From NCBI GenBank assembly GCA_964549025.1, contig CAZJUE010000001.1:1-59491 (forward strand): 59,491 nt of DNA. The letters run 5' to 3'. The translations under genes and the position numbers were made by a program. The notes beneath the pieces were generated by a model. That model did no database searches. It had not been told where the DNA came from and saw only the letters and a program-made list of their open reading frames with translations. How positions within the stretch are numbered: the stretch's first letter is position 1; each line of letters begins with the position of its first letter. Of the stretch, positions 3,549-47,921 are shown piece after piece. Source of the stretch: an uncultured Anaerolineaceae bacterium. Its GTDB lineage: Bacteria > Chloroflexota > Anaerolineae > Anaerolineales > E44-bin32.

Positions 3549-3658
3549 TGTTCTAGTGCGGTGGGGCAACGCAACGGCTCCAAGAGCGCCGCTCTTGGAG
3601 CTCCGCACGGCCACCCGGGCCGGAAACGAATATTGACCCCCACCGGAAGGGAGATCCC

Positions 3659-4060: not shown

Positions 4061-4069
4061 ACAACCTGC

Positions 4070-4098
4070 AAGGCCCTCAAGCTCAGCTTGAGGGCCTT
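4070..4098 (+). terminator. Stem-loop after ssb (possible weak terminator or attenuator)
   Basis: 13-bp perfect stem AAGGCCCTCAAGC-tca-GCTTGAGGGCCTT. The downstream T-run is poor (ccccatattt). Confidence 0.45.
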
Positions 4099-4123
4099 CC
4101 CCATATTTACGGAGCAGCGAGAG

Positions 4124-12720: not shown

Positions 12721-12833
12721 CAGCCCAATTGCAGCTGCGCGCCCCGCGCTGTGGGTGGTCGGGTCTCTCTCCACTCCTTAATGAAGAGTCATAGGGTCGC
12801 CGTGATAGAATCGCCTACTCGTCGGTACCCCTA

Positions 12834-16177: not shown

Positions 16178-16208
16178 GGGGAACTCCCTACCTTTAACTT
16201 AAGTTTGG

Positions 16209-16217
16209 ATTGTAGCA
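16209..16217 (-). promoter_or_regulatory. Extended -10 element (TGCTACAAT) for the ftsH-like gene
   Basis: The minus strand reads TGCTACAAT about 32 nt upstream of start 16177, followed by SD GGTAGGGAG. Confidence 0.35.
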
Positions 16218-16259
16218 TTCGGGCCAATTCGACGCTCTCAAGACTCTTCAAACCTTAAT

Positions 16260-32840: not shown

Positions 32841-33194
32841 CTATCCGTGCTTGAGCGCCGCGGTTTCGTCGCTCACGATCTCCATGAAATCCGACAGCCG
32901 GGTGATTTCGAAGATCTCAGCGTAGTGTTCGGTCAGGCCGTAGGCCACCACCTTGCGCTGGTCCTTGCGCGCCTTTCCTAGGATGCTGACGATCAGCGCG
33001 ATCCCGGTGCTGTTGATATAGTCGACGTCGGAGAAGTTCAACACCAAGGTCTCCTGATTCAAGGCACCGGCCTGCTCGTAGGCGGCGCTCAACACCGCTT
33101 CCGCGAAGCCGTTGATATCGCCTGCCAGATCAACCACCGCAGTGCCGTTGGCCTGGCGTACGTCCGCTTCAGCTTGTCTCTCTGCCATGTCCAC
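32841..33194 (-). CDS. STAS-domain anti-sigma-factor antagonist-like protein (SpoIIAA/RsbV type)
   Basis: 117 aa with LNFSDVDYINSTGIALIV and FEITRL. The start overlaps the end of the upstream phosphatase-kinase gene. Confidence 0.85.
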   Translation of the reverse strand: MDMAERQAEADVRQANGTAVVDLAGDINGFAEAVLSAAYEQAGALNQETLVLNFSDVDYINSTGIALIVSILGKARKDQRKVVAYGLTEHYAEIFEITRLSDFMEIVSDETAALKHG

Positions 33195-34773: not shown

Positions 34774-34798
34774 CTGTCCTCCATTGTGCTTGGCATGA

Positions 34799-34837
34799 GT
34801 CCCGAAAGCGTTACGGCTGAGATGGGAGCAAGCTTCC
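34799..34837 (-). promoter_or_regulatory. ECF-like promoter candidate (GGAAGC-N16-CGTAACGCTTTCGGGAC), copy 1
   Basis: The minus strand reads GGAAGC (34837-34832), 16 nt, then CGTAAC (34815-34810). The 19-nt core 34799-34817 matches 44985-45003 at 18 of 19 positions. Confidence 0.4.
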
Positions 34838-34945
34838 AGGTAGCGGTATGGCGATCCTCGAACCGCCTGAGGCGGCTGCATTGCGACATGGCGAACCTTG
34901 GACCGCGCGGGCCTGGTGGCGCGATTGCATCGTTTGCACCCGGGA

Positions 34946-36388
34946 TCACTCGCTGCGTTCCCATTCCGCTGCGTGGAGCGCCCGCCACTCCGGGCTCAAT
35001 GGCACAACGCCAAGCTGTCGAACAATCTGTCGGGCCGCCAGCCCGACCACCGCGGTGAAAGTGGGGTAGGCCAGCTCCATCTCAGCCAATTGCTCGACCC
35101 ACATCCCGGCGGCCATACCGGCCGCCACCAGCTGCACGATTTCCAGCGCTTGTTCGCCAGCGGCGTGCGCACCCAGGATCCGATGGTTGTCCTGCGAAAT
35201 GATCAACTTGAAGATTCCCTCTGGACGCCCATCGATCACCGCCCGGTCCAGTTCGGAATACGGAACCACGGCGGTTAGATACTCGGCTCCGGCCTCAACT
35301 ACCGCCTGCTCGGTCAGTCCGACGCTGCCGTATTCAGGATCGGTAAACCCGCCGTGGGGCACGATCTGGTGTTCGAAGCGCAGTTCCGGACCGAGTACCG
35401 CGTTTTCGGCCGCAATGCGTGCCTCATAACCGGCGCTTTGCACCAGCATCATCCGTCCCGTGATGTCGCCGGCGGCGAATATGTGTGGGGCGCTGGTCTG
35501 CAAGTGTTGGTTGGCCGGCACGTAGCCGCGCTCCACCACCACCCCGGCCGCCTCCAGGTTCAACCCCTCGACGTTGCCGACCCAGCCGACCGCCAGCAGC
35601 ACCGCCTCGGCGCTCAGTTTTTGCTCTTCTTCCTTGCGGCTGTAGACCAGCTGCAAATCGTCCGTCTGGCCATTGATGCGCTGCACGCCGTCGATGCCGG
35701 TAATCACTTGGATGCCCCGCTCGGTGAAGCCGCGCTCAACTTCCTCGGAGATCGCCCGATCTTCTATCGCCAGCAAGCGCGGCGCCAGCTCGAGAATGGT
35801 CACCTCAGAGCCAAAAGCAGCGAAGTTGGAAGCCACCTGGCAGCCAGTGGCCGCCCCTCCGACGATGATCAGCGACCGCGGTTGGCGCTTTAGGGTCCAG
35901 GTGTCGCTGTGGGTCAGCGACAACTCCGAACCTGGGAAATCGATCCGACGCGGGTGGCCGCCTACACACAGGATGAACTTCTCACCGTGCAGTCGTTCAC
36001 CGCTGGCGAGCGCAACGGTGTGTGGACCGATGAAACTGGCCGAGCCGACCGCGGTCATGGTGTGCGCACCGGAATCTTCCAGGTGCTGGATCAGCTGCTT
36101 CTTTTCGTGAATGCCATACACTACCCGCCGGGTCCGCCGTAGCAGCTGCCCGAAATCGACCTGCGGCGGCGAACCCATCAGGCCGTACTCGACAAACTGC
36201 TCCGACTCGCGTTGCAGGCGGGCGGCTTTGGCCAGCACCCGGGTGGGAACGCAGCCGTCATTGGTGCAGGTGCCGCCCATGCGGTCGCGCTCGACCAGCG
36301 CCACTGAGGCGCCCAGCTCGCAGGCTCGCAGCGCGGCGGTGACTCCTGCGGGTCCCCCACCAAGCACCACCACATCGAATTCCTTCAC
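34946..36388 (-). CDS. Pyridine nucleotide-disulfide oxidoreductase (dihydrolipoyl dehydrogenase / mercuric reductase-like flavoprotein)
   Basis: VVVLGGGPAGV FAD fold, redox-active GGTCTNDGCVPT, a second dinucleotide fold IIVGGAATGCQ and a dimerisation-domain YPTFT motif. Confidence 0.85.
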   Translation of the reverse strand: MKEFDVVVLGGGPAGVTAALRACELGASVALVERDRMGGTCTNDGCVPTRVLAKAARLQRESEQFVEYGLMGSPPQVDFGQLLRRTRRVVYGIHEKKQLIQHLEDSGAHTMTAVGSASFIGPHTVALASGERLHGEKFILCVGGHPRRIDFPGSELSLTHSDTWTLKRQPRSLIIVGGAATGCQVASNFAAFGSEVTILELAPRLLAIEDRAISEEVERGFTERGIQVITGIDGVQRINGQTDDLQLVYSRKEEEQKLSAEAVLLAVGWVGNVEGLNLEAAGVVVERGYVPANQHLQTSAPHIFAAGDITGRMMLVQSAGYEARIAAENAVLGPELRFEHQIVPHGGFTDPEYGSVGLTEQAVVEAGAEYLTAVVPYSELDRAVIDGRPEGIFKLIISQDNHRILGAHAAGEQALEIVQLVAAGMAAGMWVEQLAEMELAYPTFTAVVGLAARQIVRQLGVVPLSPEWRALHAAEWERSE

Positions 36389-36403
36389 GTTGCTCCCTCG
36401 TGG

Positions 36404-37642
36404 CTATTCATTGCCAGTTCGCCTTCTCACCCAGAGCGATAAGTGGGATGGCTGCATGGTTTCCTGAGCGGTCTCCAATAGCGCCGATTGCATGAGCTCC
36501 AGATCCACCTCCTCGCGCAGGCGAGCCGAAAGCTCGTCCAGCACTCCTTGTGCGTCATACTTGGCCCGATTGAATCGGCGATCGACCGCGTTTTGCACCC
36601 GAAGGCGTAATGGGTTGAACAAGGCAGCCACAACCAGCGTCGAAACCACGACTCCGAACTGGCTCTGGAACGGAAGCAGCTGTTGCGCCAGCGTTACGGA
36701 GCCAGCGAAAACCGCGGCCAAGAGACTGACGACGATTGCATACGCCGCGGTGCGAGAAATGATCCGGTCGATGTCGTAAAGCCGGTATTTAAGGATGGCG
36801 ATCCCGATGGTGGTGGGCAGGCCGACGGACACAAAGATCAATAGGACCGCGTCGAGCTGCCCAGCTGCGGTAAATCCAAATACTGCTCGGGCCACAGTCG
36901 TCAGGAGCAAGGGCGCGATACCTGCGGTGGCGACAAAGAGGACCCATTTGATCTGCTGTCGAGCGTCGCCGACCGATTGCCGGTAGCGCCTGAGCAAGCC
37001 AACCAGCGACAGCACAACTGCCAGAGCCAACAGCGGCTCCACCGCCGAGCCTACGGCGGTGTTGATACGCTCGACCGCGGGAAGGTGGAGCGGATTGCTT
37101 GCACTCAGCAGGCATTCGGTGACAACTCCCTCCGTCCACACGGGCTCAACGCACACGGTTGACGTTCCGAACGCAGGGAGCAAAAGATACAACAGAATCA
37201 GGACACCGTTCGCCCAAAGCACAATCCGCCATCGGCGACTGGGAAGCTGGCCGTCGGGGAACAGCAGCACGCCGGGTCCAAGGATCAGCAGAATCGACAG
37301 GGCATACAGCCACCCACCCGTCTGAATCAGAACGGCGGCCGCGGAATCGTTTCCCGCATGGGCCTGGAGTGGGGCCATCGTTTCAATCACGTTACCGATC
37401 GTCCCTGCTACCCCGAAAGCCAGGAAGATCCATCCCAGTGGATTCCACGGAAGTTTGATCGCAATCAGCCATCCCACCAACGGGAAGACCAAAAACGAAA
37501 GCGCGAACCCCACGTCAAATGCAGCTAGCGCCTGGGCGCCTTGCGATCCCAGGATGAAAACGAACGCCAGCCATGTCGTGACAACCGATACCAATAAAAG
37601 CGTGGCCAGCGCGCTCGTCCAGCGGCGGCGTGAGCTGCTCAT
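36404..37642 (-). CDS. Polytopic membrane protein, kinase-less sensor-like family (member 5)
   Basis: LLFPDGQLPSRRWR, ARQQIKWV, ILKYRLYDIDRIISRT and C-terminal FNPLRLRVQNAVDRRFNRAKYDA...ETMQPSHLSLWVRR. Strong SD AAGGAG. Confidence 0.7.
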   Translation of the reverse strand: MSSSRRRWTSALATLLLVSVVTTWLAFVFILGSQGAQALAAFDVGFALSFLVFPLVGWLIAIKLPWNPLGWIFLAFGVAGTIGNVIETMAPLQAHAGNDSAAAVLIQTGGWLYALSILLILGPGVLLFPDGQLPSRRWRIVLWANGVLILLYLLLPAFGTSTVCVEPVWTEGVVTECLLSASNPLHLPAVERINTAVGSAVEPLLALAVVLSLVGLLRRYRQSVGDARQQIKWVLFVATAGIAPLLLTTVARAVFGFTAAGQLDAVLLIFVSVGLPTTIGIAILKYRLYDIDRIISRTAAYAIVVSLLAAVFAGSVTLAQQLLPFQSQFGVVVSTLVVAALFNPLRLRVQNAVDRRFNRAKYDAQGVLDELSARLREEVDLELMQSALLETAQETMQPSHLSLWVRRRTGNE

Positions 37643-37775
37643 TACCGCTCCTTAAGCCAGAGCGCACCAAGCGAGAGGAGGATCGATCGCTCGAGGATCC
37701 CAAGCGGATCGATCATCCACGAGCGTTTGCGCGGGATTGCAGACCGAGGTCGAGAATCCATCCTCCGAACTCAAC

Positions 37776-38525
37776 TCACTGCTCGACGATAAGGGTGCCG
37801 CGCATCCCGGCTTCAGTATGACCGGGGATCGCACAGACGAACTCGTACCTGCCGGGCTGCGCCTCGAAGGTAACTGACAACTCGGCTCCGACCGGCACCC
37901 GCAGATCGACGCCCAGTTCTTCGATGGTGAAGGTGTGCCAGAACAAATCGTCATTGGCCATGGTCACTGTGATTTCCCCGGCCGGGGCAGCGATCTCGGA
38001 ATCAGAAAATGCAACGTTCTTAGCCAGCAGCAGAACGTCCCCGGTTGCCGGCTCTGGGCGCGCGGCGCTGTTGCCCCAGATTATCAACCCCAGCAGCAAC
38101 CCAATCGAAGCGATCAGCCCCATCCGCGGAGCGCTGGTGGACAGTGAGTTTTCGGCCACGAGGAATCCAACAGCGGATACCAGGCCTAGCAACGCGACTG
38201 CCGCCAGTACTGCGGAGGTCATCGTCGACGACAGTTCGGAACCGACGCGGATATTGGTTATCGCCGCAGTCAGCATGAAGAACAGGGTGATGGCGGATGC
38301 GGCGGCCAGGCCGACGGCCCCCAGCCGCCCTCTGCGTACCCGAGTCATCCAGGTTGCCGCCGCGAATCCGACGGTCACCACCCCGCCCTCCAGGTCACCG
38401 AGTCCCAAAGAGACCAGGCCCATGGTGCCGGCGGCCAGGATGCCGGCGATGGTCACCAGTCGCCGCCAGGTCAGTCCCTGACCGACCGGCTCCGGATCGA
38501 CGTTACGCTGCGTGGGAATGCTCAT
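37776..38525 (-). CDS. Membrane-anchored cupredoxin (type-1 copper) protein
   Basis: About 5 N-terminal TM helices, then a cupredoxin domain with ligand pattern FWHTF...FVCAIPGHTEAGM (His...Cys-x3-His-x4-Met). Confidence 0.75.
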   Translation of the reverse strand: MSIPTQRNVDPEPVGQGLTWRRLVTIAGILAAGTMGLVSLGLGDLEGGVVTVGFAAATWMTRVRRGRLGAVGLAAASAITLFFMLTAAITNIRVGSELSSTMTSAVLAAVALLGLVSAVGFLVAENSLSTSAPRMGLIASIGLLLGLIIWGNSAARPEPATGDVLLLAKNVAFSDSEIAAPAGEITVTMANDDLFWHTFTIEELGVDLRVPVGAELSVTFEAQPGRYEFVCAIPGHTEAGMRGTLIVEQ

Positions 38526-39097
38526 GGTTGGGTACCTTTCGGTTCAAGCTCTCGAATCCAGAGCGAGAGGTGCGCCGGCTGCAGACCCAGAAAGAAGACC
38601 ACATCACTGGAGAAGATCAGCGAGGTTGCCCGCAGCAACCCACGCGCGGCCGGCAGGTCTGGTCGCCGGAGGTATGCGAATACCGCCATCGCCAGCATGT
38701 AGATCAGGAACAGGTAGCCAGGCCAGTTGGTCAGCAGGCTCGGAAGCAGATTGCGCGCTGCCAGCCGATGGGAGAGCTCGATGAACTCGGATTCGCGATC
38801 CAGCAAATAGGCAAGCTCGACCGGCGGCTGCGCCGTGCCTGGCATTGGGCGGGCCAGCAACGATTCAATTGATGGACCGTTCACTGCAACTATTCGATCA
38901 CGCCGCTGTAGCGGCGATCGCTGGTCTAGGATCTCACCGACGTACAAGCCCTGACCTTCCCGCGGTTCCCTCTGCAGGTCGAGCAGCACCCCATCTCCTG
39001 GCAGCAGTACTCTTGCACCGACGTAGATTGCGCTTGGAAGCACCAAGGCGACGCTCAATACGATCAGCCAGCGACTAGCTGAGGGGGCCGCGTTCAT
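38522..39097 (-). CDS. Short member or derivative of the sensor-like membrane family (member 4)
   Basis: N-terminal TM helix plus a PDZ-like stretch (YVGEILDQRSPLQRRDRIVAVNG). Retains the FAYLRRPD motif and the terminal LQPAHLSLWIRE tail. ATGA overlaps at both ends. Confidence 0.5.
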   Translation of the reverse strand: MNAAPSASRWLIVLSVALVLPSAIYVGARVLLPGDGVLLDLQREPREGQGLYVGEILDQRSPLQRRDRIVAVNGPSIESLLARPMPGTAQPPVELAYLLDRESEFIELSHRLAARNLLPSLLTNWPGYLFLIYMLAMAVFAYLRRPDLPAARGLLRATSLIFSSDVVFFLGLQPAHLSLWIRELEPKGTQP

Positions 39098-39972
39098 TGA
39101 CCGATAGCTGGATCACCAGCATTGCCCCGCAGCCAGAGCGATACAAGGGTGGGCTGCATAGTCTCCTGCCCTGTATTCAGCAGGGACGACTGCATTTCTG
39201 TCAGGTCCACTTCGTCTCGCACCGATTCGCCAAAGGCGCTCAAGGTCTGCGCCGCGTCGTAATCCGCGCGGAAGAATCTCCGATTCACCACCGTTTGTAT
39301 CCGCTGGCGCAGCGGATTGAAGAGCGCCGCGATCAGGCCAATGAGCAGAGCCGCCAGCTGCGCAACCGTCCCCGGAGAGGACTCCATGCTGGGCACCAGC
39401 TGCTCCAACAATGGATCAGCAAACGCGAGCAACGCCAAGGGAAATGCCAGGTAGCGGCCCCAGTCGGGGACGAAGCGGCCGTCTGGAAACAAGAAGATCA
39501 TCAGAATGATCAGCCCAGAGCCAATTGCGCTCAGCGTGTTGTAGAGCGGCGCCAGCGCCGGGGTCTGCTCCGACAAGATGGAGACGTTGTCCGAGATCCC
39601 GTTGATTCCAACCGCAATTAAGGCCATTGAAGCCAGCAATCCGATCCAGTCATCCGACCGGCGCAGATAGATCACTACCCCCAGGCCTGCCCAGGTGAGC
39701 AGCAGCAACTCGGAAGTGGGCAGGAAGCTGGCGTAGAAATCGTGAGAGACCCCCAGCTCTTCGAGCACCGCAAGTTCTTGAGCGGCGAGCTGGAAGGCAG
39801 TGCAATCGTCGCCGCTGCAGAGCTCCTGGTAGTTGGCGATGCTTACAGGACAGGCCGCGACAAAGACCGCGAAGTAGATCACTGCCAGGAGAATCCAAAG
39901 CAGGCGCGCTGACCCCAGCGCCAGCCCAGGCGGCCGCGCGCTCTCAGAGGGACTGGAGATCCAATTGCTCAA
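39094..39972 (-). CDS. Polytopic membrane protein, kinase-less sensor-like family (member 3, short)
   Basis: IYLRRSDDW, LFPDGRFVPDW and C-terminal FNPLRQRIQTVVNRRFFRADYDA...ETMQPTLVSLWLR. Lacks the QQTKW and YRLWDID middle section. TTG start overlaps the upstream stop. Confidence 0.62.
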   Translation of the reverse strand: MSNWISSPSESARPPGLALGSARLLWILLAVIYFAVFVAACPVSIANYQELCSGDDCTAFQLAAQELAVLEELGVSHDFYASFLPTSELLLLTWAGLGVVIYLRRSDDWIGLLASMALIAVGINGISDNVSILSEQTPALAPLYNTLSAIGSGLIILMIFLFPDGRFVPDWGRYLAFPLALLAFADPLLEQLVPSMESSPGTVAQLAALLIGLIAALFNPLRQRIQTVVNRRFFRADYDAAQTLSAFGESVRDEVDLTEMQSSLLNTGQETMQPTLVSLWLRGNAGDPAIGQ

Positions 39973-41273
39973 TGCAGCTGGTGTCCACTTCGCCGGTCCC
40001 TCAGCCAGATGGAAGTTTCGACCGGCTGGACGGTATCCTCAACCACGTCCAGCACTGCCTCGCTCACGTCTGCCAATCCGAAAGCCTGCTGTATCGTGCC
40101 TCCAAACTGCTTAAGGGCAAGATCGGCGTCGTATCGGGTCCGGTAGAAGCGCCGGTCGACCGCAGCCTGGATTCGTCGTCGAAGCGGATTGAAGAATGCG
40201 GCGACGATCAGGGTAGAGCTCACGATCGCCAGATTACTGGTACCCGCAGCTTCGGTTGGAACTATGTCTCCCAGCACGCCGCGAAAGATCTGTTCCAGCG
40301 CAAGGACGCTGATGGCGTAGATGCCGGCCAACAATACGGTCAGGGCTCCGTATCCGAGCGTCCGGCTGACCAGCCGATCGATGTCCCACAGGTGGTGGCG
40401 CGCCACCGAAACCCCGATGGCCAGCGGCATCAGCGCAAACGAGCCCAGGCTGACGGGTACGACCAGGAGTTCCCAGAACAGGCTGGGTATTCCGGGCGAG
40501 CGAAGCACCGGGAGGACGATGATTGGAAGCCACATCGCAGCCAGGGTGAGGGTCATGGCCGCGAACCCATAGACCACCCACTTGGTCTGCCGTCTCTGTG
40601 CCTGATCCCGGGTACCTCTCAGCCGTTGAAGCTGAGCCAGGGCTGCAGCGCCAAACCAGGCTATTAGCCCCAGAAACGGAATAAAGTCGTTGAGCTCCTT
40701 CAGGTCCGGTTTGCGGGTGGGTGGCGGCGCCACGATCCAGCTGAGCGCGAAGAGCAGCGAAACCACCGCAAAGCCCTTGGTCCAGCGCGGCACGAAACGA
40801 CCATCGGGAAACAGGCAGATCGAAATTACCACCGAGCTCCACGCCAACGCTCGGTGCACGAGCACCGGTATGTGCCAGGCTGGGTGCAGTTCGCGCAACG
40901 AGGTGGCGAAATCGCTCATGGACAATCCGAAGGCCAGCAGCGCAAACGAAACAAAGAGCACCATCCAGTCGTCCGATTTGCGTGCGAACAGCAATACACC
41001 GAAGGCCATCAGAGCCACCGCGAATACGACCTCAATCCCCATGATGTAGGAGGCCAGGAATCGCACCGAAAGCCCGAGCCGGTCGAGGGCTTCCGCATAA
41101 TCGGTCGCCAGGATCGAGCCGCTGTTTAGATCAGTCCAGCGCGCCGGCAGACCGATCAGAAAGATTGTCAGCGTCAGCGCGGCAGCAGCCAGCCAGCCGA
41201 GCCGCGCCCGGGTCAGTGCCGGTCGGCGAAGGTTGGTGATGGATGCTCGAGTGCGGGGGGCTTTATCGGCCAT
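39969..41273 (-). CDS. Polytopic membrane protein, kinase-less sensor-like family (member 2)
   Basis: LFARKSDDW, LFPDGRFVPRW, RRQTKWV, HHLWDIDRLVSRT and FNPLRRRIQAAVDRRFYRTRYDA...DTVQPVETSIWLR. Confidence 0.7.
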   Translation of the reverse strand: MADKAPRTRASITNLRRPALTRARLGWLAAAALTLTIFLIGLPARWTDLNSGSILATDYAEALDRLGLSVRFLASYIMGIEVVFAVALMAFGVLLFARKSDDWMVLFVSFALLAFGLSMSDFATSLRELHPAWHIPVLVHRALAWSSVVISICLFPDGRFVPRWTKGFAVVSLLFALSWIVAPPPTRKPDLKELNDFIPFLGLIAWFGAAALAQLQRLRGTRDQAQRRQTKWVVYGFAAMTLTLAAMWLPIIVLPVLRSPGIPSLFWELLVVPVSLGSFALMPLAIGVSVARHHLWDIDRLVSRTLGYGALTVLLAGIYAISVLALEQIFRGVLGDIVPTEAAGTSNLAIVSSTLIVAAFFNPLRRRIQAAVDRRFYRTRYDADLALKQFGGTIQQAFGLADVSEAVLDVVEDTVQPVETSIWLRDRRSGHQLH

Positions 41274-41283
41274 CGCGGTCCGC

Positions 41284-42570
41284 CTATTGCCGTGAGTCCG
41301 GACCGGACTGCTTCAGCCAGATCGAGCTCCGAACCGGCTGTACCGTCTCCTCCACCACTCCGAGCAGTACCTGGCTGAGCTCTTCCAGTTCGACCTCGTC
41401 GCGCACGGTGCCACTGAATCCCGCCAAGGCGCGCGAGGCATCGTAGCGCCGCCGGTAAAAGCGGCGGTCGATGACGTGCTGGATGCGGTTGCGCAATGGA
41501 TTGAAAACCGCCGCGATGCCAAGCGTAGTGGCTACGATGGCCAACTGGTCACCCTGGCCGGTCAGCAGCCGGAACAAGTTGGTGAGCAGCGCCACCCCGG
41601 CCAAGTACAGCACCGCCAGCGTGCCGGTGAGCGCGCCGTATACCAGGGTGCGGTTGATGATGACGTCGATATCCCACAGGCGATAGCGCAAGATGGCGAT
41701 CACGAAGGAGATGGGGAAGATCAGCGTCGCCAGGATGAATCCGGTCAGCCCGATCAGTCGGGCCGCCAGCGTGATGGCAAACAGCGAAGCCCCGACTCGC
41801 TGATAGAAGATGTTGGGAACGGTGAGCCCGCCCAGCTGAGGAAGGATTACGAATGGCAGGAAGTAGCCGAAGGGGCCCATCACCGCTAGCACCAGGCCCA
41901 AGATCGCCCATTTGGTCTGCTGTCGCTGGAGCGGGCTGGAAACTGATAAGTACCGGTGGAACTGAGCGTACAGCCCGGCGCCCGACCAGATCACCAGCAC
42001 CAGCAGCTGCAGCGGCACCGGCCAGGCGGCGACGCTGAGCGGGGATTCGGGGAGGAAGATGGCGAAGGCCATGATCAGTCCCCAGGACCCCACCATGCCG
42101 GCGGTCCAGCGCGGCACGAAACGGCCGTCGGGGAACAGGTAAAGCAAGCTGAGGCCAGAAACCAATCCGATATAGGTTACACAGCGCACCAGGAACAGCC
42201 AGACCGGCAGCACCTCCCCGGCCGGATACATCAGCGACAGCGGGATCCAGGCGCCATTGCTGACCAGCGCCAGCGCCAAAGCCAGCGCCATCCACTCGTC
42301 TGATCGTCGCAAGAAGACGACCACGCCGATCACCAGGTGGAAGGTCACCATCAACAGGTACAACGCCGTCAGATAGGCGCCGTACCCTTCCGGCGTTAGA
42401 CCCAGGTCCTCCACCGAGCGCAGGTCAACCCCGGTCGACAGCCGCCGGAAGAGGCCGGGAATGCCAAAAGCCACCAATCCAACGATTAGCAGCGTCAGCC
42501 CGATCCACAACACGCGGGCCGCGCGCCGCAAGGCTACGGTGTTTTGCTGGTGCAGTGGCTCGGCAGTCAA
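41284..42570 (-). CDS. Polytopic membrane protein, kinase-less sensor-like family (member 1)
   Basis: VFLRRSDEW, LFPDGRFVPRW, QRQQTKW, ILRYRLWDIDVIINRT and FNPLRNRIQHVIDRRFYRRRYDA...ETVQPVRSSIWLK. Confidence 0.7.
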   Translation of the reverse strand: MTAEPLHQQNTVALRRAARVLWIGLTLLIVGLVAFGIPGLFRRLSTGVDLRSVEDLGLTPEGYGAYLTALYLLMVTFHLVIGVVVFLRRSDEWMALALALALVSNGAWIPLSLMYPAGEVLPVWLFLVRCVTYIGLVSGLSLLYLFPDGRFVPRWTAGMVGSWGLIMAFAIFLPESPLSVAAWPVPLQLLVLVIWSGAGLYAQFHRYLSVSSPLQRQQTKWAILGLVLAVMGPFGYFLPFVILPQLGGLTVPNIFYQRVGASLFAITLAARLIGLTGFILATLIFPISFVIAILRYRLWDIDVIINRTLVYGALTGTLAVLYLAGVALLTNLFRLLTGQGDQLAIVATTLGIAAVFNPLRNRIQHVIDRRFYRRRYDASRALAGFSGTVRDEVELEELSQVLLGVVEETVQPVRSSIWLKQSGPDSRQ

Positions 42571-42587
42571 ATCAGATCCCCGATCGG

Positions 42588-43451
42588 CTATTGCAGAGTC
42601 TGCAAGTACATCCAGACGGCAGCCAGCTCATCGTCGGTCATTTCGCCCACCAGCTTCCAGGGCATCAGGCGCGGGTCAAGATCCTCTCCTCGCGGAGTCT
42701 CCCCGGTGCGCAACGCGTGGACGAAATCGGACTGGCTCCAATCTGCCAGATCGCCGCTCTGGGTGAGGTCCAGGCCAGCCCCGGCAGTCGGACCACCACG
42801 CAAGTCGGCACCGTGGCAGATAGCGCAGGCTGTGGCGAGATACTCCCCGTACTCGACGGTAGCGCCGGGTTGTGGCGCGGTCGGGCGCTCGGCGGCGTGA
42901 TCGATGGTCTCAGCCGGGATCAACGAATCGTCGGTGAGCAAAGTGAGGTAAGTCAGCAATCCCAGATTCCTCTCTGGCAGCTGATTGGCGACCGGCGGCA
43001 AGCTCTTGAGGTAGGCGATGATCGCTCCGAGATCACTGTCGCTGATGTAGTAGTAGGAGTTGGAGGGCATCACGATCAGCGGCCGTTCCTCGGGATCCAG
43101 GCCATGTCGGATGGCACGGACCCAGTCCAGGTCGCTGAAAGAGGAACCAACCCCGCCAGCGCCGGAGGTGAGGTTCTTGGCCGAAACCTGTCCGCTAAGC
43201 GGATCATCCAGATATAGCTCACCCTGCAGTTGATCGCCGTGGCACAGCCGGCAGAAGAAGACCGAGCTGACCAGGTGCTGACCGCGCTCGATCGCGGCCT
43301 GGTCGGTTGGAACCGTGATCGGCTCGACCGAAACGGAATGGCGAAGCTCGAGCCGTTGCTCAACGTCGTTCCGGATCACCGTGGTGGCCAGCAGCAGCAG
43401 CGCGGCGGCCGCTACGGCAAGAATCAGCAAATAGCGAAGCAGCCTGCGCAC
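42588..43451 (-). CDS. Dihaem c-type cytochrome with N-terminal membrane anchor
   Basis: Two CxxCH motifs (CRLCHG, CAICHG), each followed by a candidate Met ligand (VMPS, LMPW) and an AYL/MYL..L tail. N-terminal hydrophobic anchor. Confidence 0.85.
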   Translation of the reverse strand: MRRLLRYLLILAVAAAALLLLATTVIRNDVEQRLELRHSVSVEPITVPTDQAAIERGQHLVSSVFFCRLCHGDQLQGELYLDDPLSGQVSAKNLTSGAGGVGSSFSDLDWVRAIRHGLDPEERPLIVMPSNSYYYISDSDLGAIIAYLKSLPPVANQLPERNLGLLTYLTLLTDDSLIPAETIDHAAERPTAPQPGATVEYGEYLATACAICHGADLRGGPTAGAGLDLTQSGDLADWSQSDFVHALRTGETPRGEDLDPRLMPWKLVGEMTDDELAAVWMYLQTLQ

Positions 43452-43455
43452 TCGG

Positions 43456-43878
43456 CTAGGCCTCAGCCTGGCCGGTCAGCCCGGCGGCCTGAGTGCTTTC
43501 TTGCGGTTGCTCCAGCAGCAGCTCGCGCGCTCGTTTGGCGTGCAGGTAGGACACGTAGGTCAAGATGGAAGCGTTCAGCGGGTGCAAGGCTGCCAGGTAG
43601 GGCAGCTCATCCCGCAACCCGGGCAGCACGGTCTGCACGATGTGTAAAACCAGCACTGCCACCAACCAGCCCACCAGCCTGCGGGGGATCCAGCGCAGCA
43701 ATCCCAGCACGATCAGCACCAGTCCTGGCAGCTCGGAAGACCAGCCGAACTCCGTGTGGGTCTGCCACAGGCTGTTCCGAACAAACAGGGACATGCCGGC
43801 CATCACGATGGTGGCCAGCAGCCAGATCACCATCAGCCAGGCAAACCCAATGTAAAGGTAGCTCAAAATCCTGCGCAT
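43456..43878 (-). CDS. Small integral membrane protein (4 TM), unknown function
   Basis: 140 aa with four hydrophobic segments and a conserved-looking LHPLNA. Lies 4 nt upstream of the cytochrome c gene. Possibly DUF6220-like (memory only). Confidence 0.55.
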   Translation of the reverse strand: MRRILSYLYIGFAWLMVIWLLATIVMAGMSLFVRNSLWQTHTEFGWSSELPGLVLIVLGLLRWIPRRLVGWLVAVLVLHIVQTVLPGLRDELPYLAALHPLNASILTYVSYLHAKRARELLLEQPQESTQAAGLTGQAEA

Positions 43879-43946
43879 CGTTCATTCCTCCCAAGGCCCT
43901 TTGCGGGAGCCTCTGCATTCTAAACCGCTGATTCAGGCGGAGGCGT

Positions 43947-44435
43947 TCAGAACGGCTTGAACATCATCAGCCATAAGATCACCAGCGTGCCGCCAAACCC
44001 CAGAACTGCCAGCTGAACCGGCCGCAAGGAGGCCTTGACGGCCAGGATCTCTGGCTCGCTGGCCGGTTCCAGTGCCGGCTGATCGCCGGAGCCCTCGAAG
44101 TACGGCAGCCCGATTACCTTCCGTAGCTTGTGGTAGTGCGCCCGACTCGACCATCCCATGTAAATGCTCATTCCGATCAAGATTAGCAGCGAAGTCCAGA
44201 TCCAGCCCTGGCCCCACCAGTGACCCATGAAGCCGCCGACTACCCCGCCGACCAGCAGCAGCAGCAATGACAGTGCGAACATTGGCCAGCTGTAACTGGA
44301 AAGCTCGAGCAACGCTCGCACTCGATCGAGACTGCGCTCCCGCTGGATTTGAAAAGTCATGACAGTGGTGCCGCCATGAGCCAGCATAAAGCTCATGACG
44401 CCCAGCACATGCAGAAAGATAACCCACCGATACAT
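43947..44435 (-). CDS. DUF2269-like integral membrane protein, paralog 2
   Basis: 163 aa, 4 TM. ATG 44435 (MYRWVIFLHV) chosen because the longer ORF to 44726 overlaps the upstream paralog. C-terminus ILWLMMFKPF is identical to the paralog. Confidence 0.6.
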   Translation of the reverse strand: MYRWVIFLHVLGVMSFMLAHGGTTVMTFQIQRERSLDRVRALLELSSYSWPMFALSLLLLLVGGVVGGFMGHWWGQGWIWTSLLILIGMSIYMGWSSRAHYHKLRKVIGLPYFEGSGDQPALEPASEPEILAVKASLRPVQLAVLGFGGTLVILWLMMFKPF

Positions 44436-44449
44436 CACCACTCTCCCAT

Positions 44450-44944
44450 TTAGAACGGTTTGAACATCATCAACCACAGGATTGCTGCCAGGCCCACTAC
44501 GCCGATACCCGTGAGCAATACCGGACGCAGCCTGGCCTGTAGCGTGGCAACTTCCTCCGGCGACGCAGCTACCGATTTGCGGTCTTCCTTCTTCTGCGGC
44601 GCTTCGTATGCGTCTGGATCCAGCGCGTGGGCGACCCGCATGTTGCCCATTCGACCGATCACCGACATCAGTACTCCCACCACCACAAAGAGGCCGAGCG
44701 ATAGCCAGACCCAGCGCTCTTCCCACCAGCTGCCCATGAAGCTCAGCATGATACCGCTGATCAGTAGAGTGAGAATCGGCACGCCCATGCCACGCTCGCC
44801 GACCTCCCGGACCGCCAGAATCGCCCGGACCCGTTGCGGATTTTGCTCACGCTTCAGCCCGAACATTGCGCTGGCCGTAGCGCCGTGCACCAAAAAAAAG
44901 GCGATCGCGCTGGCAACATGAACGTACAAGATGAGTTGATACAC
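44450..44944 (-). CDS. DUF2269-like integral membrane protein, paralog 1
   Basis: 164 aa, 4 TM. GTG start is preceded by AAGGGAG. C-terminus ILWLMMFKPF. Confidence 0.6.
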   Translation of the reverse strand: MYQLILYVHVASAIAFFLVHGATASAMFGLKREQNPQRVRAILAVREVGERGMGVPILTLLISGIMLSFMGSWWEERWVWLSLGLFVVVGVLMSVIGRMGNMRVAHALDPDAYEAPQKKEDRKSVAASPEEVATLQARLRPVLLTGIGVVGLAAILWLMMFKPF

Positions 44945-45056: not shown

Positions 45057-47921
45057 ATGGAGTTGAAGCTGCATTTGCTCGGCCCGCCGCAGGTGCTGGT
45101 GGGGGATCAGCCGCTGAGCGTTGACACGCGCAAGGCGACGGCATTGCTCATATACCTCAGCCTAACCGGGGAGGTCCAGCGCCGCGAGAGCATCGCTGCC
45201 ATGTTCTGGCCCGAGAGCGACGGTCCACATGCGAAGGCTGCCTTACGCCGAACGCTTTCGTCGCTGCGGAAGGCGTTGGACGGGCGCTGGTTGGAGGCCG
45301 ACCGCGAAGTGCTCTCGCTCTCCGCCGACTGGATGGACTGCATTCGGTTCCGTGAGCTGGTGGAAAGCACTCGCGCCCACAACCATCCCTCCGACCGCGG
45401 CTGTGCGCGCTGCATCGCCCCGCTTAGCGAAGCTGCCGAGCTCTACCGCGGCGACTTCTTGCTGGGTTTCACGTTGCCGGACAGTCCGGGATTTGACGAT
45501 TGGCAGTACTTCCACCTGCTGGCCTACCAACGGTTGCTGTCCGAGGCGCTGCAGCGCTTGGCGGCCGTACATCAGGAACGGCAGGATTTCGAACTGGCCG
45601 CAGAGTATGCCAACCGGTTGCTCGCTCTGGACCAGCTCAACGAATCCGCTCATCGCTGGTTGATGTCGATCTACGCTCGCTCTGGAAATCGCCAGCTGGC
45701 GCTCCGGCAGTATCAGGACTGTGTTCGGGTGCTGCAGGAGGAGATCGGAGCGCCACCGTTGGATGAGACCGTCGAGTTGCATGAGCGAATCGTCGCCGGG
45801 GAACTGGAGGATTATGCCACTCCCGTTGGCATACCCGAGCTGCCGCCTCACCAGACGGCAGTGATTGCCGGCGATTTGCCGCTGATCGCTCGAGAAGACG
45901 AACTTTCTGCGATGCGGGCCTGGTATGCCGGAATCCAAGGTGCCTCGCGAGTGCTGATCGTCGAGGGCGAATTGGGGATCGGCAAATCCCGACTGGCAGC
46001 CGACTTTGCCAGCGAGCTGGCCGCCGCGGGGGCCAGGCTGGTGGAAACCCGCTGCTATCCAGACGAGTCCACCTACGCCTACCGCCCGTGGATTGACGCC
46101 CTGCGCTCCGGGCTGGAATTGCCTGAAGCCAAGCAGCGGCTCGATCAACTGCCCGACTTATGGTTGGCGGAGGCGGCCCGCCTGATACCCGAGCTTTGGG
46201 AGCTCTTCCCCCGGCTGGAGCCGCAGCAGGAGGCCGTCGGCCCCAGTGGTCAGGACCGCTTTCTGGAGTCGCTGGCCCAGGTCACCTCCGCCATGCTGGC
46301 AGGAGAGCAGCCGGGGGTGGTGCTGCTGGACGACCTGCACTGGACAGATGAAGCTTCACTGGACTTCTTGACCTATCTCCTGAGACACGTAAAGCAGCAA
46401 CCGATGTTGGTGGTGGCTGGCTGGCGAATAGAGGGTTTGGACGGCGAGCAGCAGCTGCGCCAGCTGATGGCTCGCTTTCCGTCAAGCAGCAGCCGGACCG
46501 TCCAGCTGGATCGCTTGGACGCCGATCAGCTGGCTCAACTAGCCCACGCGATCGGCATTGAGGACACCGGTCTGATCAAGCTGTTGCAGCGAGAAACCGA
46601 GGGACTGCCGTTCTTTGTCGCCGAGTACCTAGCCGCCATTGAGCCGCAAGCAGGCCAGGCGCCGCCCAAGACGCCGGCCACCATACGGCAGGCGATCGAC
46701 CGTAGATTGAATGCGCTGAGCGGCACTGGCAAGCAATTGCTCAGCACTGCGGCGGTGATCGGGCGGTCATTTGAATTCGAAACCCTTCGGATGGTCAGCG
46801 GTCGCAACCTGGAGGAGACCGTCGCCGGCATCGAGGAGCTGGCCGGGGCCGGTTCGATTCGCGAGTACCCTTCCAGCTCGCCGCGACTTGGTCCGGTCTA
46901 CGACTTTGCGCACGAGAAATTGCGCGAGGTCGCGCTGGAAGGCACCACCCAGGCCCGCCAGCGTTTGCTGCATGCTCGCGCAGCGTCAGCGCTTATCCGT
47001 TTACAGGGACATCGTCAGAGTGAGCTGCTGGCCGACCGCATTGCGCACCACCTGTTGCGGTCGGGTGACGAAGCCGGTGCGGCAGCGATGTATCTTCAAG
47101 CGGGGGAGCACGCTCGGTCGGTGTACGCCAATGAGGAAGCACTGGCCCACTTTCGCAGCGCGCTGGCGCTGGGGGAGGGTGATGAGGCCGCGCTGCACGA
47201 TTCGATCGGCGATCTGCTCACATTGCTTGGCCGCTACGATGAGGCACTGCGCAGTTACCAGGCGGCCGGTGCACAGCTTGAGCAAGGAACCGCGGCCGGC
47301 ATCGAACGCAAATTGGGCGCGCTATACCAGCGGTGGGGGCGCTGGGAACGCGCGCAGCATCATTTCGCGGCTGCGGCCGAGCAGGCGCAAGCCCCGGCCG
47401 AATTGGCGCGAATCTACGCCGATTGGAGCCTGAACGCACACCGCCAGGGAGAACCGGAGCAGGCGGAGCAGCTGATCCAACAAGCGCTTGAGCAGGCACA
47501 GGCTGCTCAAGATCGCGGCGCACTGGCCCAATGTCACAACATCCTGGGCGTCTTGGAACGCGCACGGGGTCGGGCTGAGACAGCCATCCAGCATCTGAAG
47601 CACAGCCTGGAACACGCCGATCAGCTGTCCGATCCGGCTGCGCGCGCGGCGGCGCTGAACAACCTTGCGCTGGCTCTGGCGCAGGACGGTCAATTGGACC
47701 AGGCGTTAGAGGCTGGCAGAGAGGCCTTGGAGATCAGTGAGTCACTCGGCGACCGACATCGGGCAGCCGCACAGCACAGCAACCTGGCCGACCTGCTGCA
47801 TCAGGCCGGCGAGACACAGCAGGCGCAAGAGCACCTTACCGCCTCAGCCGAGCTGTTCGCCGCGGTTGGCGTGGAATCGGGCGAGTTCGAGCCGGAGATC
47901 TGGAAGTTGGTGGAGTGGTGA
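45057..47921 (+). CDS. SARP/AfsR-family regulator (wHTH-BTAD, AAA ATPase, TPR)
   Basis: N-terminal OmpR-type wHTH (LHLLGPPQVLVGDQPL...RKATALLIYL), BTAD (AHRWLMSIYARSGNRQLALRQYQ), P-loop GELGIGKS and C-terminal TPR-like repeats. Confidence 0.85.
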   Translation: MELKLHLLGPPQVLVGDQPLSVDTRKATALLIYLSLTGEVQRRESIAAMFWPESDGPHAKAALRRTLSSLRKALDGRWLEADREVLSLSADWMDCIRFRELVESTRAHNHPSDRGCARCIAPLSEAAELYRGDFLLGFTLPDSPGFDDWQYFHLLAYQRLLSEALQRLAAVHQERQDFELAAEYANRLLALDQLNESAHRWLMSIYARSGNRQLALRQYQDCVRVLQEEIGAPPLDETVELHERIVAGELEDYATPVGIPELPPHQTAVIAGDLPLIAREDELSAMRAWYAGIQGASRVLIVEGELGIGKSRLAADFASELAAAGARLVETRCYPDESTYAYRPWIDALRSGLELPEAKQRLDQLPDLWLAEAARLIPELWELFPRLEPQQEAVGPSGQDRFLESLAQVTSAMLAGEQPGVVLLDDLHWTDEASLDFLTYLLRHVKQQPMLVVAGWRIEGLDGEQQLRQLMARFPSSSSRTVQLDRLDADQLAQLAHAIGIEDTGLIKLLQRETEGLPFFVAEYLAAIEPQAGQAPPKTPATIRQAIDRRLNALSGTGKQLLSTAAVIGRSFEFETLRMVSGRNLEETVAGIEELAGAGSIREYPSSSPRLGPVYDFAHEKLREVALEGTTQARQRLLHARAASALIRLQGHRQSELLADRIAHHLLRSGDEAGAAAMYLQAGEHARSVYANEEALAHFRSALALGEGDEAALHDSIGDLLTLLGRYDEALRSYQAAGAQLEQGTAAGIERKLGALYQRWGRWERAQHHFAAAAEQAQAPAELARIYADWSLNAHRQGEPEQAEQLIQQALEQAQAAQDRGALAQCHNILGVLERARGRAETAIQHLKHSLEHADQLSDPAARAAALNNLALALAQDGQLDQALEAGREALEISESLGDRHRAAAQHSNLADLLHQAGETQQAQEHLTASAELFAAVGVESGEFEPEIWKLVEW

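Follow-up and report, generated by a model that had tools for sequence, protein, structure and literature searches.

Membrane-anchored electron carriers and kinase-less sensor modules share an operon in an uncultured Anaerolineae bacterium, pointing to a split sensor-phosphatase

Partner switching is known from the RsbT-RsbU pathway and the stressosome of Bacillus subtilis. In this system a PP2C phosphatase that acts on STAS proteins is switched by a separate upstream protein that engages its N-terminal domain or linker, and several paralogous sensors, the RsbR paralogs, converge on one phosphatase. PPM phosphatases can also be controlled by N-terminal sensor domains through a coiled-coil linker, and GAF-PP2C architectures joined by a long helical linker are documented (PMC12143880). 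Rv1364c of Mycobacterium tuberculosis carries the phosphatase and an RsbW-like kinase on one polypeptide (PMC12143880). SypE of Vibrio fischeri has the same combination. Partner switching has been tied to oxygen or electron-transport status in the stressosome oxygen sensor of Vibrio vulnificus (PMC9237108) and in RsfSR-SigF monitoring of the respiratory chain in Mycobacterium smegmatis (PMC10950880). Intramembrane-sensing kinases such as BceS and LiaS have minimal extracytoplasmic loops and need a neighbouring membrane protein, encoded beside them, to perceive the signal (BceAB and LiaF respectively). AfsR of Streptomyces coelicolor is a large SARP whose target box is made of direct repeats spaced 11 nt apart (PMC10936776).

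This work will focus on a locus that can be compared with each of these systems. The window is the whole stretch of 59,491 nucleotides that we analysed, from an uncultured Anaerolineaceae bacterium (assembly GCA_964549025.1, contig CAZJUE010000001.1, positions 1 to 59,491 of the forward strand). The original prediction, made from the sequence alone, was that eleven minus-strand genes (44944 to 34946) form one operon that joins extracytoplasmic electron carriers to an array of five sensor-like paralogs. This observation is confirmed. All eleven open reading frames exist, and the junctions between them are +8, +68, +4, +17, +10, -4, -4, -4, +133 and +15 nt, as had been claimed.

The first two genes encode 4-TM proteins. 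The product of 44450-44944 is a DUF2269 protein (39 bits against a cut-off of 28) with invariant H9 and H20 in TM1 and a C-terminal WLMMFKPF. The product of 43947-44441 falls below the DUF2269 cut-off (19.9 bits) but is 33% identical to the first over all 164 aa (E 2e-27). Next comes a small DUF6220 membrane protein (43456-43878, 43 bits). The cytochrome c at 42588-43451 has one N-terminal TM helix and two cytochrome c domains, with CRLCH at residue 67 (43239-43253) and CAICH at residue 209 (42813-42827). Met128 and Met263 are invariant and are the likely sixth ligands. Its closest solved relatives are the membrane cytochrome subunits of fructose, glucose and alcohol dehydrogenases. The gene at 37776-38525 encodes a polytopic membrane anchor (5TM) fused to an extracytoplasmic type-1 cupredoxin (Cupredoxin_1 44 bits, Copper-bind 30 bits) with H197 and C231-x4-H236-x4-M241; the motifs are WHTF at 37929-37940 and CAIPGHTEAGM at 37803-37835. 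The last gene, 34946-36388, encodes a cytoplasmic class-I flavoprotein disulfide reductase (Pyr_redox_2 190 bits, dimerisation domain 84 bits) with GGTCTNDGCVPT at residue 38, C41-x4-C46 lying at 36242-36277. Its subfamily is unassigned: it scores below the LipDH and MerA cut-offs, reads AYPTF where LipDH has HPT..E, and has no C-terminal Cys pair.

The five paralogs align with each other, but two of them need correction. Three are full-length: parA (41284-42570, 428 aa, about 10 TM and a cytoplasmic helix-strand tail), parB (39969-41273, 434 aa) and parE (36404-37642, 412 aa). parC (39094-39972, 292 aa) is an in-frame internal deletion derivative that keeps the tail; its 430-aa orthologue in one close relative, locus L002, carries about 138 more residues. 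parD (38522-39097, 191 aa) is a remnant made of a TM helix, a PDZ-like stretch, two TM helices and only the last ~15 residues of the family tail, ending in LQPAHLSLWIR. Its full-length PDZ-type relative is another locus, L008. The term sensor-like is verified, since the same membrane domain heads a genuine GAF-HisKA_3-HATPase kinase in this genome (L007), to whose residues 199-469 parA aligns.

The genes around the operon appear to belong with it. Divergent from it lies an AfsR-like large SARP regulator (45057-47921, plus strand) with wHTH+BTAD, AAA_16/NOD and TPR regions (BTAD 69 bits, AAA_16 77 bits, TPR_12 78 bits; the NCBIfam AfsR model matches residues 2-258). An orthologue sits divergently upstream of the cassette in 13 of about 21 clade loci with room, and in cupredoxin-led loci. 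The next minus-strand operon begins with a phosphatase/kinase (33169-34773) composed of the C-terminal part of a GAF domain, a PP2C (SpoIIE) domain and an RsbW-like HATPase_c_2 domain. It continues with STAS proteins, one of them at 32841-33194, the presumed substrates. A candidate promoter box precedes both operons. Box P1 (44984-45001, minus strand) has the direct repeats CGTAACG (45001-44995) and TGGGACG (44990-44984) with an 11-nt period, a -10-like TAGATT at 44973-44968, and the GTG start at 44944. Box P2 (34798-34815, minus strand) has CGTAACG (34815-34809) and CGGGACT (34804-34798), a CACAAT at 34788-34783, and the ATG at 34773. There are 2 copies of the box in the window against 0.06 expected and 3 in the 3.1-Mb genome. 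It is conserved in front of the first cassette gene and of the PP2C gene in genome and metagenome loci. The 7-mer occurs 37 times on the gene strand against 8 on the other, and 52 against 19 in a second set. The geometry agrees with the SARP rule in PMC10936776.

The adjacency of carriers and sensors is far beyond chance. It had been said beforehand that synteny unique to this genome would make it fortuitous, and this is not what we found. The relatives L001 and L002, at 70-75% identity, and loci L011-L017 keep the divergent SARP gene, the DUF2269s, DUF6220, cytochrome c, paralogs, flavoprotein and PP2C. All but one of the cytochrome c genes that sit beside a sensor gene, with no room to tell for one more, form one clade across Anaerolineae (25 rows: 23 adjacent, 1 no room, 1 not; support 90/94), and they lie among differing flanking genes. 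All 20 sensor genes that follow a cytochrome c form one exclusive clade of the parA type (99/100, in 100% of bootstrap trees). The cupredoxin gives an independent carrier. Of 25 full-length TM-cupredoxin homologues with at least 1.5 kb of flank, found independently in metagenomes, 11 have a sensor paralog within 3 kb and 19 have some part of the system, while hits to the cupredoxin domain alone have none. Several of these loci read SARP, cupredoxin, paralogs and PP2C with no cytochrome c. All 7 sensors scored as lying after a cupredoxin fall in the parE-side branch of the tree. However, two cupredoxin-adjacent sensors (L118 and L134) fall on the parA side, and conserved adjacency within one bacterial class is also what vertical inheritance alone would give.

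The eleven-gene composition is not itself the conserved unit. The conserved core is the SARP regulator, a carrier with its cognate sensor, and GAF-PP2C-RsbW with STAS. The functional unit extends beyond 34946 into the next operon, which shares the promoter box. In the sampled loci DUF2269 and the flavoprotein lie beside sensor-linked cassettes only in the window's subclade (the flavoprotein also in locus L022), and DUF6220 was found only there plus locus L027. Homologues of the second DUF2269-like protein also lie next to cytochrome c genes that lack a sensor gene (L088, L090). In the closest relatives the cupredoxin slot holds a cytoplasmic protoglobin-Rieske protein, also followed by a sensor of the parE type.

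The new result is that in other Chloroflexota the sensor module and the PP2C/kinase are a single polypeptide. A search with a joined parA+PP2C probe found single natural proteins of 932-970 aa covering 97-99% of it, plus forms of about 755-805 and 1050-1138 aa. These proteins sit in the same STAS + CrtI-like operon and the junction is collinear. The break falls inside the GAF domain: in one fused protein, P0153, Pfam GAF spans the junction (residues 395-543 matching profile positions 2-133). The N-terminus of the window's PP2C protein alone matches GAF profile positions 45-133 (34.2 bits), and with the parA tail placed in front it matches 1-133 (41.5 bits), although this gain of 7 bits is modest. 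Fused and split states interleave on the PP2C tree with at least 2 changes, so fusion or fission happened more than once. The tail is under constraint. P412 and W418 are invariant across 28 homologues down to 29% identity, the motif is present in 108 of 117 homologues, and both truncated copies retain it. It is coil with pLDDT ~41 in parA modelled alone but a strand (E421-424, pLDDT ~69) in the modelled fusion. On the other hand the split-form phosphatase has its own conserved N-terminal x-W-[RQK] motif (66 of 100), which could fill the same strand slot, so complementation may not be needed. In L003/L021 the PP2C orthologue is unlinked, and the fused forms we inspected have no carrier gene beside them.

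We believe, with a probability of about 0.5, that the eleven genes are a lineage-specific elaboration of a conserved Anaerolineae signalling regulon under an AfsR-like SARP-NOD-TPR activator. Its probable box would be two nGnnACG repeats 11 nt apart, overlapping the -35 region, about 10 nt before a TA-start -10. In this view the kinase-less proteins are the detached membrane halves of the phosphatase/kinase. Each has about ten TM helices with very short outer loops, then a long cytoplasmic helix, and ends with the first helix and strand of a GAF domain, and the phosphatase/kinase begins with the rest of that GAF. Each carrier gene is followed by its own sensor type, cytochrome c by the parA type and the cupredoxin (or protoglobin-Rieske in relatives) by the parE type. 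The redox or cofactor state of the membrane-anchored carrier would be read inside the membrane by the cognate module, whose tail would dock on the GAF/linker of the phosphatase/kinase and bias it between dephosphorylating and phosphorylating the STAS proteins. Several sensor modules would therefore converge on one effector. This points to an undescribed way of reporting redox conditions outside the cell to a partner-switching pathway. The gene content, synteny, cognate clades, shared box, natural fusions and position of the break come directly from our analysis, while binding of the box by the SARP protein, physical docking, what is sensed and the direction of control are inferred from sequence, gene order and models. 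The sensor's outer loops are short, so the model leaves any contact with the soluble domains of the carriers unexplained. It also does not explain the flavoprotein, DUF2269 and DUF6220, which would be accessory redox parts of this subclade.

The original prediction had read the operon as an envelope redox or copper-responsive sensing or electron-transfer system rather than a respiratory complex, and this interpretation is partly supported. The association is conserved, no oxidase or reductase catalytic subunit is among the eleven genes, and a sensing role is the best-supported reading. Nothing specifically points to copper responsiveness, however, and that the sensor modules are split-off halves of the phosphatase/kinase had not been seen.

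Other readings remain possible but we consider each of them less likely. One could argue that this is an envelope electron-transfer or detoxification module, in which the flavoprotein, the DUF2269/DUF6220 proteins (possibly binding haem b or a metal through the two invariant His), the cytochrome and the cupredoxin carry electrons across the membrane to an external oxidant or metal, and the sensors are merely co-regulated with it or regulate it. All these cofactor proteins are in one operon, the solved relatives of the cytochrome are quinone-linked membrane cytochromes, the second DUF2269 protein has homologues beside cytochrome c genes without sensors, and the PuuD urate oxidase couples an 8-TM DUF989 domain, distantly DUF2269-like, to a cytochrome c (PMC4562309). 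This is the strongest of the alternatives, though still unlikely in our opinion. A fixed vectorial chain would not tolerate the swap of the cupredoxin for a cytoplasmic protein, the disulfide reductase has no evident partner here (no thioredoxin-like, DsbD or CcdA protein is present), DUF2269, DUF6220 and the flavoprotein beside sensor-linked cassettes are nearly confined to one subclade in the sampled loci, and the universally conserved partners of the carriers are the sensor and regulator genes. It is less likely again that the carriers are clients rather than inputs, with the modules monitoring cofactor supply or assembly (haem or copper loading, or folding stress) of their neighbouring carrier, or responding to copper, so that the pathway adjusts expression. 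The cognate pairing and the membrane anchoring of both carriers, which would allow contact between TM helices, are compatible with this, and the cupredoxin has weak similarity to CopI-type copper-resistance proteins. That match is far below cut-off, however (26 bits against 280), no copper-handling genes (CopA/CopZ/CsoR-like) lie in or beside the cluster, and the same slot can hold a cytoplasmic haem/FeS protein.

It is doubtful that the kinase-less modules act instead on true histidine kinases, as heterodimerising decoys or co-sensors. The same domain does head HisKA_3 kinases in this genome (L007, C20 and C244), and one dihaem cytochrome c paralog lies 1.6 kb upstream of such a kinase. But parA is closer to the PP2C-fused forms (35-50% identity at full coverage) than to the kinase (30% over 309 aa), the fused forms occupy the same operon as the window's PP2C gene, and the conserved C-terminal GAF piece has no counterpart role in a kinase heterodimer. 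Least likely is a decaying paralog array beside unrelated redox genes, with adjacency that is only inherited gene order. Two of the five copies are truncated, the paralogs in L002 are broken into pieces, and all loci with the pair belong to one class. Against this, the pair persists while its flanks change, two unrelated carriers show the same association, the shared box is conserved, tail residues are invariant, and fusion or fission with the PP2C gene has happened repeatedly.

We can now return to the described systems. Compared with RsbT-RsbU and the stressosome, the upstream proteins here are polytopic membrane proteins rather than a cytoplasmic complex. They have no STAS or kinase domain of their own and appear to carry a piece of the phosphatase's own GAF domain, and no sigma factor is encoded nearby. 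The long linker of the GAF-PP2C architectures has a counterpart in helix 510-560 of our fusion model. In Rv1364c and SypE one enzyme both phosphorylates and dephosphorylates STAS partners, but the input is a PAS or a receiver domain on the same chain; here it is a membrane domain, either fused or encoded as separate, multiplied genes. The Vibrio vulnificus and Mycobacterium smegmatis systems use a haem-globin domain on RsbR or a two-component system. The protoglobin-Rieske protein of our relatives recalls globin-coupled RsbR, but neither of those systems uses a separate c-type cytochrome or a cupredoxin paired with a membrane module. Compared with BceS and LiaS, the accessory proteins here would be redox carriers and the output is a Ser/Thr phosphatase/kinase, not a histidine kinase. 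In PuuD, as possibly here, a small helical membrane domain works with an extracytoplasmic cytochrome c, but the similarity is only marginal (E 0.15 in PMC4562309), the proteins here are separate, and no substrate is implied. The regulator shares the SARP-NOD-TPR domain order of AfsR and a predicted box of 11-nt-spaced direct repeats overlapping the -35 region just upstream of the -10. The organism, however, is a Chloroflexota and not an actinomycete, the repeat sequence differs (nGnnACG), and the putative targets are signalling and redox genes rather than antibiotic genes.

The 3.1-Mb assembly that carries this window consists of 447 contigs and is about 89% complete, and its closest database relatives are labelled Anaerolineales/Anaerolineaceae. 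Between 44944 and 34946 the minus strand carries eleven ORFs, with junctions of +8, +68, +4, +17, +10, -4, -4, -4, +133 and +15 nt. Domain searches recover the list of products in the original prediction, so that observation holds. There is a DUF2269 protein, a second copy 33% identical to it, and a DUF6220 protein. Across 21 homologues the DUF2269-type proteins (43947-44944) have two invariant histidines in TM1 (LHV ... L.HG), a G..G.WW..W.W block and an invariant C-terminal WLMMFKPF, which hints at a bound cofactor. Literature searches for DUF2269 gave only a marginal link to PuuD. The cytochrome c has a single N-terminal TM anchor at residues 8-26 and two haem motifs, C67xxCH and C209xxCH, with invariant M128 and M263, as a dihaem class I c-type cytochrome should. 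A membrane anchor is fused to a cupredoxin domain whose H197, C231, H236 and M241 are invariant in three homologues. Cupredoxin_1 and Copper-bind both score above their cut-offs, so by sequence this is a type-1 (blue) copper protein with the full ligand set.

Several more familiar identities can be excluded. The closest solved relatives of the cytochrome suggested a subunit of the membrane-bound sugar/alcohol dehydrogenases, but those have three haem c domains and a partner dehydrogenase encoded alongside, while only two haem motifs are present here. No dehydrogenase lies beside the gene in this window or beside 45 homologues outside the sensor-linked clade, and a Pfam tally of 78 genes flanking such homologues found no recurrent partner, so we dropped this idea. 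The class-I flavoprotein disulfide reductase stays below the curated cut-offs of every named subfamily and could not be assigned to MerA, LipDH, GR, RclA or any other. It scores 324.9 bits against a cut-off of 454 for mercuric reductase MerA and has no Cys in its C-terminal 200 residues, where MerA has a Cys pair. It scores 328.7 bits against a cut-off of 408.8 for dihydrolipoyl dehydrogenase, and it reads AYPTFTA where that enzyme has the His-Glu dyad (HPT..E) of the interface domain. None of the eleven products matches a haem-copper oxidase, a bd oxidase, or a molybdo- or FeS-reductase, so there is no catalytic subunit of a respiratory oxidase or reductase complex among them.

The five sensor-like paralogs align with each other, but two of them are derivatives. 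The 292-aa copy, parC (39094-39972), lacks about 138 internal residues that its 430-aa orthologue has in L002, a close relative's locus on a 3.35-Mb long-read contig. The 191-aa ORF keeps only a TM helix, a PDZ-like stretch, two TM helices and the last ~15 residues of the family. In L002 two sensor paralogs are each broken into two ORFs (12561-13808 and 16100-17051; 194+213 aa and 115+193 aa) and the SARP gene is also in two pieces, which may be real decay or frameshift errors of the assembly. No HisKA, HisKA_3 or HATPase_c domain was found in any of the five paralogs using Pfam and NCBIfam, and they end 8-20 residues after the GAF beta1-like strand, so they are not two-component sensor histidine kinases. 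The label 'sensor-like' is nevertheless justified, since the same membrane domain heads a bona fide GAF-HisKA_3-HATPase kinase (L007) and a PDZ-containing form elsewhere in this genome. The family has more than 7,000 database relatives and no Pfam model. A Foldseek search of the predicted parA structure against the PDB gave only noise-level GPCR-like hits (best E 0.08, TM about 0.3), so the membrane domain has no solved relative. A profile-profile comparison of the membrane anchor of the cupredoxin protein with the sensor family showed no homology. Only parC has three cysteines (CPVSIANYQELCSGDDC) in its first extracytoplasmic loop (residues 41-57), which could be a redox-sensitive disulfide. 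A histidine in TM2 of parA (41284-42570, residue H78) is nearly invariant in the cytochrome-c-cognate sensor clade and is absent from parB, parC and parE.

The adjacency is conserved, and in an informative way. Close relatives (cytochrome 60-71% identical) keep the whole arrangement, in which a divergent BTAD-AAA-TPR regulator is followed by two or three DUF2269 genes, DUF6220, cytochrome c, paralogs, the flavoprotein and then a GAF-PP2C-HATPase_c_2 gene with STAS genes. At the cupredoxin position, however, they carry a cytoplasmic protoglobin-Rieske fusion of about 330 aa (11429-12418 in the relative's locus L001; also in L002 and in relative loci L012-L014), exactly where this window has the TM-cupredoxin, and it is followed by the orthologue of parE. 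More distant loci (cytochrome 42-55% identical) keep only the regulator, the cytochrome c, the sensor gene directly after it, and often the PP2C gene and a CrtI-like flavoprotein. The flanking genes are otherwise different. Two trees show how strict the pairing is. On a tree of 90 cytochromes, 23 of the 25 sensor-adjacent ones form one clade, which also holds one row with no contig room and one without a sensor gene (support 90/94). On a tree of 51 sensor proteins, the 20 that follow a cytochrome c form one exclusive clade (99/100, in every bootstrap tree). Cytochromes outside the first of these clades have no recurrent neighbour. In contig C244 of this genome (L095:311-1255 and 2882-4147) a second dihaem cytochrome c paralog, 44% identical, lies 1.6 kb upstream, on the same strand, of a true histidine kinase-type protein with the same sensor domain.

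A second carrier gives independent support. We seeded a metagenome scan with the TM-cupredoxin alone. Of the 25 full-length homologues with enough flank, 11 have a sensor paralog within 3 kb and 19 have some part of the system, while hits to the cupredoxin domain alone have none. Several loci read regulator, cupredoxin, paralogs and PP2C with no cytochrome at all, and others read cupredoxin, cytochrome c and paralogs. All seven sensors scored as following a cupredoxin fall in the other main branch of the sensor tree, together with parE of the window, whose orthologues in relatives follow the protoglobin-Rieske gene. One near-identical pair of cupredoxin-adjacent sensors (L118, L134), on the parA side of the tree, is an exception. 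Two unrelated extracytoplasmic carriers, and in relatives a cytoplasmic haem/FeS protein, are thus each coupled to a sensor gene. The original prediction had named a synteny unique to this genome as the result that would count against it, and the survey instead favours a real association. Its reading of the genes as an envelope redox or copper-responsive sensing or electron-transfer system is only partly supported.

A shared, probable promoter element precedes both the eleven genes and the next operon. CCGTAACGCTTTYGGGAC occurs on the minus strand at 45002-44985, 40 nt before the first gene, and again at 34816-34799, 25 nt before the ATG at 34773 of the PP2C gene. That is 2 copies against 0.06 expected in the window, and there is only one further near-copy in the genome (contig C31:14125-14142, which is L094:4126-4143), with 2 mismatches, about 65 nt before a likely start of a ~140-aa four-TM protein. 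The element is conserved at both positions in relatives and also lies in front of cupredoxin, cytochrome and PP2C genes in independent metagenome loci. In the two sets of loci the core 7-mer occurs 37 against 8 and 52 against 19 times on the gene strand against the opposite strand. One metagenome locus (L130, contig Ga0299914_10000607) has five copies, the first 133 nt before the cupredoxin gene and the last 42 nt before a sensor gene, whereas the window has only one box for its whole array. No box lies inside the eleven genes at up to 3 mismatches, so the cluster is, judged from sequence alone, plausibly one transcript. The 133-nt gap before parE (37643-37775) contains a degenerate box-like string (CGCAAACGCTCGTGGATGA), but it has more than 3 mismatches to the box and was not counted as a site. 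Scans for consensus sigma-70 promoters and intrinsic terminators gave fewer or no more sites than shuffled sequence, so they say nothing about operon boundaries.

The divergent gene encodes an AfsR-like large SARP, with BTAD at residues 94-245, AAA_16 at 276-453 and TPR_12, and the AfsR model matches residues 2-258. This is the expected order of an N-terminal OmpR-type wHTH plus BTAD, then NOD/AAA, then TPR. The published rule for SARP boxes calls for direct repeats 11 (or 22) bp apart that overlap the -35 region, with the 3' repeat about 8 bp from the -10 (PMC10936776). Here the repeats CGTAACG and TGGGACG are 11 nt apart and are followed about 10 nt later by a conserved TA. The heptamer ends 10 nt, not 8, before TAGATT, while counted as 11-nt units the gap is 6 nt, as in the afs box. 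Some relatives have two or three clearer repeats, and in some the upstream repeat pair is 12 nt apart. The spacing to the -10 is close to the canonical value rather than identical to it. We infer that this regulator activates both units, though this rests on sequence and not on binding data.

The adjacent operon has the parts of a partner-switching system, with SpoIIE (172 bits) and HATPase_c_2 (80 bits) in 33169-34881 and STAS (43 bits) in 32841-33194. These genes are not within the eleven, and no sigma factor or other defined output for the kinase or the STAS protein is seen in the stretch examined. Three alignments connect the kinase-less sensors to this enzyme and place the break between them. 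Residues 124-410 of parA align with residues 199-469 of kinase L007 and end in the first GAF helix. The PP2C protein aligns with the remainder of that GAF. A probe made by joining parA to the PP2C protein retrieved natural single polypeptides of 932-970 aa that cover 97-99% of the probe, as well as forms of about 755-805 and 1050-1138 aa, from several data sources. We inspected three of these fused proteins in their contigs. Each is followed by a STAS gene, and two are then followed by the CrtI-like flavoprotein found in the downstream operon of the window. The third has a 255-aa protein there and a BTAD regulator 2 kb downstream. None of the fused forms inspected has a carrier next to it. Two loci with a fused sensor-PP2C protein, L091 and L092, both have a 711-719-aa protein (L091:14307-16466 and L092:14497-16632) with a weak planctomycete-type cytochrome c (PSCyt1) hit, about 3.5 kb downstream on the opposite strand.

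The break falls inside the GAF domain. In the fused proteins the sensor tail (...ETxQPxxxSLWLR) is separated by only 10-30 variable residues from the motif that opens the PP2C protein of the window (IxIAPNDPL...), so the junction is collinear. In the fused protein P0153 Pfam finds a full-length GAF (profile positions 2-133) across the junction. With the window's own pieces, the PP2C N-terminus alone matches GAF profile positions 45-133 (34.2 bits), with the parA tail in front it matches 1-133 (41.5 bits), and the tail alone matches nothing. The structure models agree. The tail is predicted to be unstructured with pLDDT ~41 when parA is modelled alone, but it is a strand with pLDDT ~69 in the modelled fusion, which also shows the long helix between GAF and PP2C expected for sensor-controlled PPM phosphatases (PMC12143880). 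The tail is strongly conserved: P412 and W418 are invariant down to 29% identity, the motif is present in 108 of 117 homologues, and it is kept by both truncated copies. On a tree of the PP2C parts, fused and split forms interleave, so fusion or fission happened more than once. This is the classical signature of proteins that work together physically. However, split-form PP2C/kinase orthologues share an N-terminal x-W-[RQK]-x-L motif within the first 14 residues (66 of 100 database hits; 34738-34773 in the window). It resembles the sensor tail strand S-L-W-L-R and could occupy the same strand position. This suggests either that complementation is unnecessary or, more interestingly, that strands compete for the slot. 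The PP2C gene is also unlinked in one genome.

The analysis shows a conserved regulon with a SARP-type box, cognate carrier-sensor cassettes, and sensors that are split-off halves of a partner-switching phosphatase/kinase, with all of this evidence being comparative. The rest of the model is inference, and that includes binding of the regulator to the box, physical complementation of the two GAF pieces and the copper content of the cupredoxin. In this view the ten-helix module, which has very short outer loops, would read the state of its membrane-anchored carrier within the membrane, much as intramembrane-sensing kinases rely on accessory membrane proteins. The tail of the module would engage the GAF/linker of the phosphatase/kinase and set the balance of STAS phosphorylation, and several modules would converge on one enzyme. 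The carriers are high-potential-type proteins (His/Met haems, blue copper) and the solved relatives of the cytochrome interact with the quinone pool. The likely signal is therefore the redox poise of the outer face or of the respiratory chain, but nothing here identifies it. DUF2269, DUF6220 and the flavoprotein are restricted to the subclade of the window and are not explained by this model. The invariant His pair in DUF2269 and the distant PuuD analogy keep an electron-transfer role possible for them.

A more speculative version of this idea, which we consider unlikely although nothing rules it out, is a modular, many-to-one transmembrane signalling design. Interchangeable cassettes would each be headed by a different redox cofactor protein (a c-type cytochrome, a blue-copper protein or a globin-Rieske protein) and would each end in a sensor whose C-terminal helix-strand is a detachable piece of the GAF domain of a single cytoplasmic phosphatase/kinase. 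The sensor tails would compete with one another, and with the enzyme's own N-terminal W-strand, for one slot in that GAF. Strand exchange would then be the switching event that sets STAS phosphorylation, possibly feeding back on the AfsR-like regulator.

How partner-switching phosphatases receive signals from outside the cell is largely unknown outside a few model organisms. If the model holds, it assigns a role to a very large uncharacterised family of membrane proteins. It would also give a concrete, testable mechanism by which monoderm Chloroflexota, which are abundant in sediments, soils and wastewater, could report extracytoplasmic redox conditions to the cytoplasm, and it would show SARP/AfsR-type regulators controlling signalling regulons outside the actinomycetes. 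The repeated fusion and fission events also make this a clean natural system for studying how signalling domains can be divided between proteins. In the literature we could search, we found no case that uses separate c-type cytochromes or cupredoxins as inputs to such phosphatases or pairs separate redox carriers with dedicated kinase-less membrane modules, and none with this many-to-one layout, with a sensor split from its phosphatase inside a GAF domain, or with SARP control of such a regulon in Chloroflexota. The pieces themselves, in contrast, all belong to known kinds: partner switching, SARP regulators, cupredoxins and class I cytochromes.
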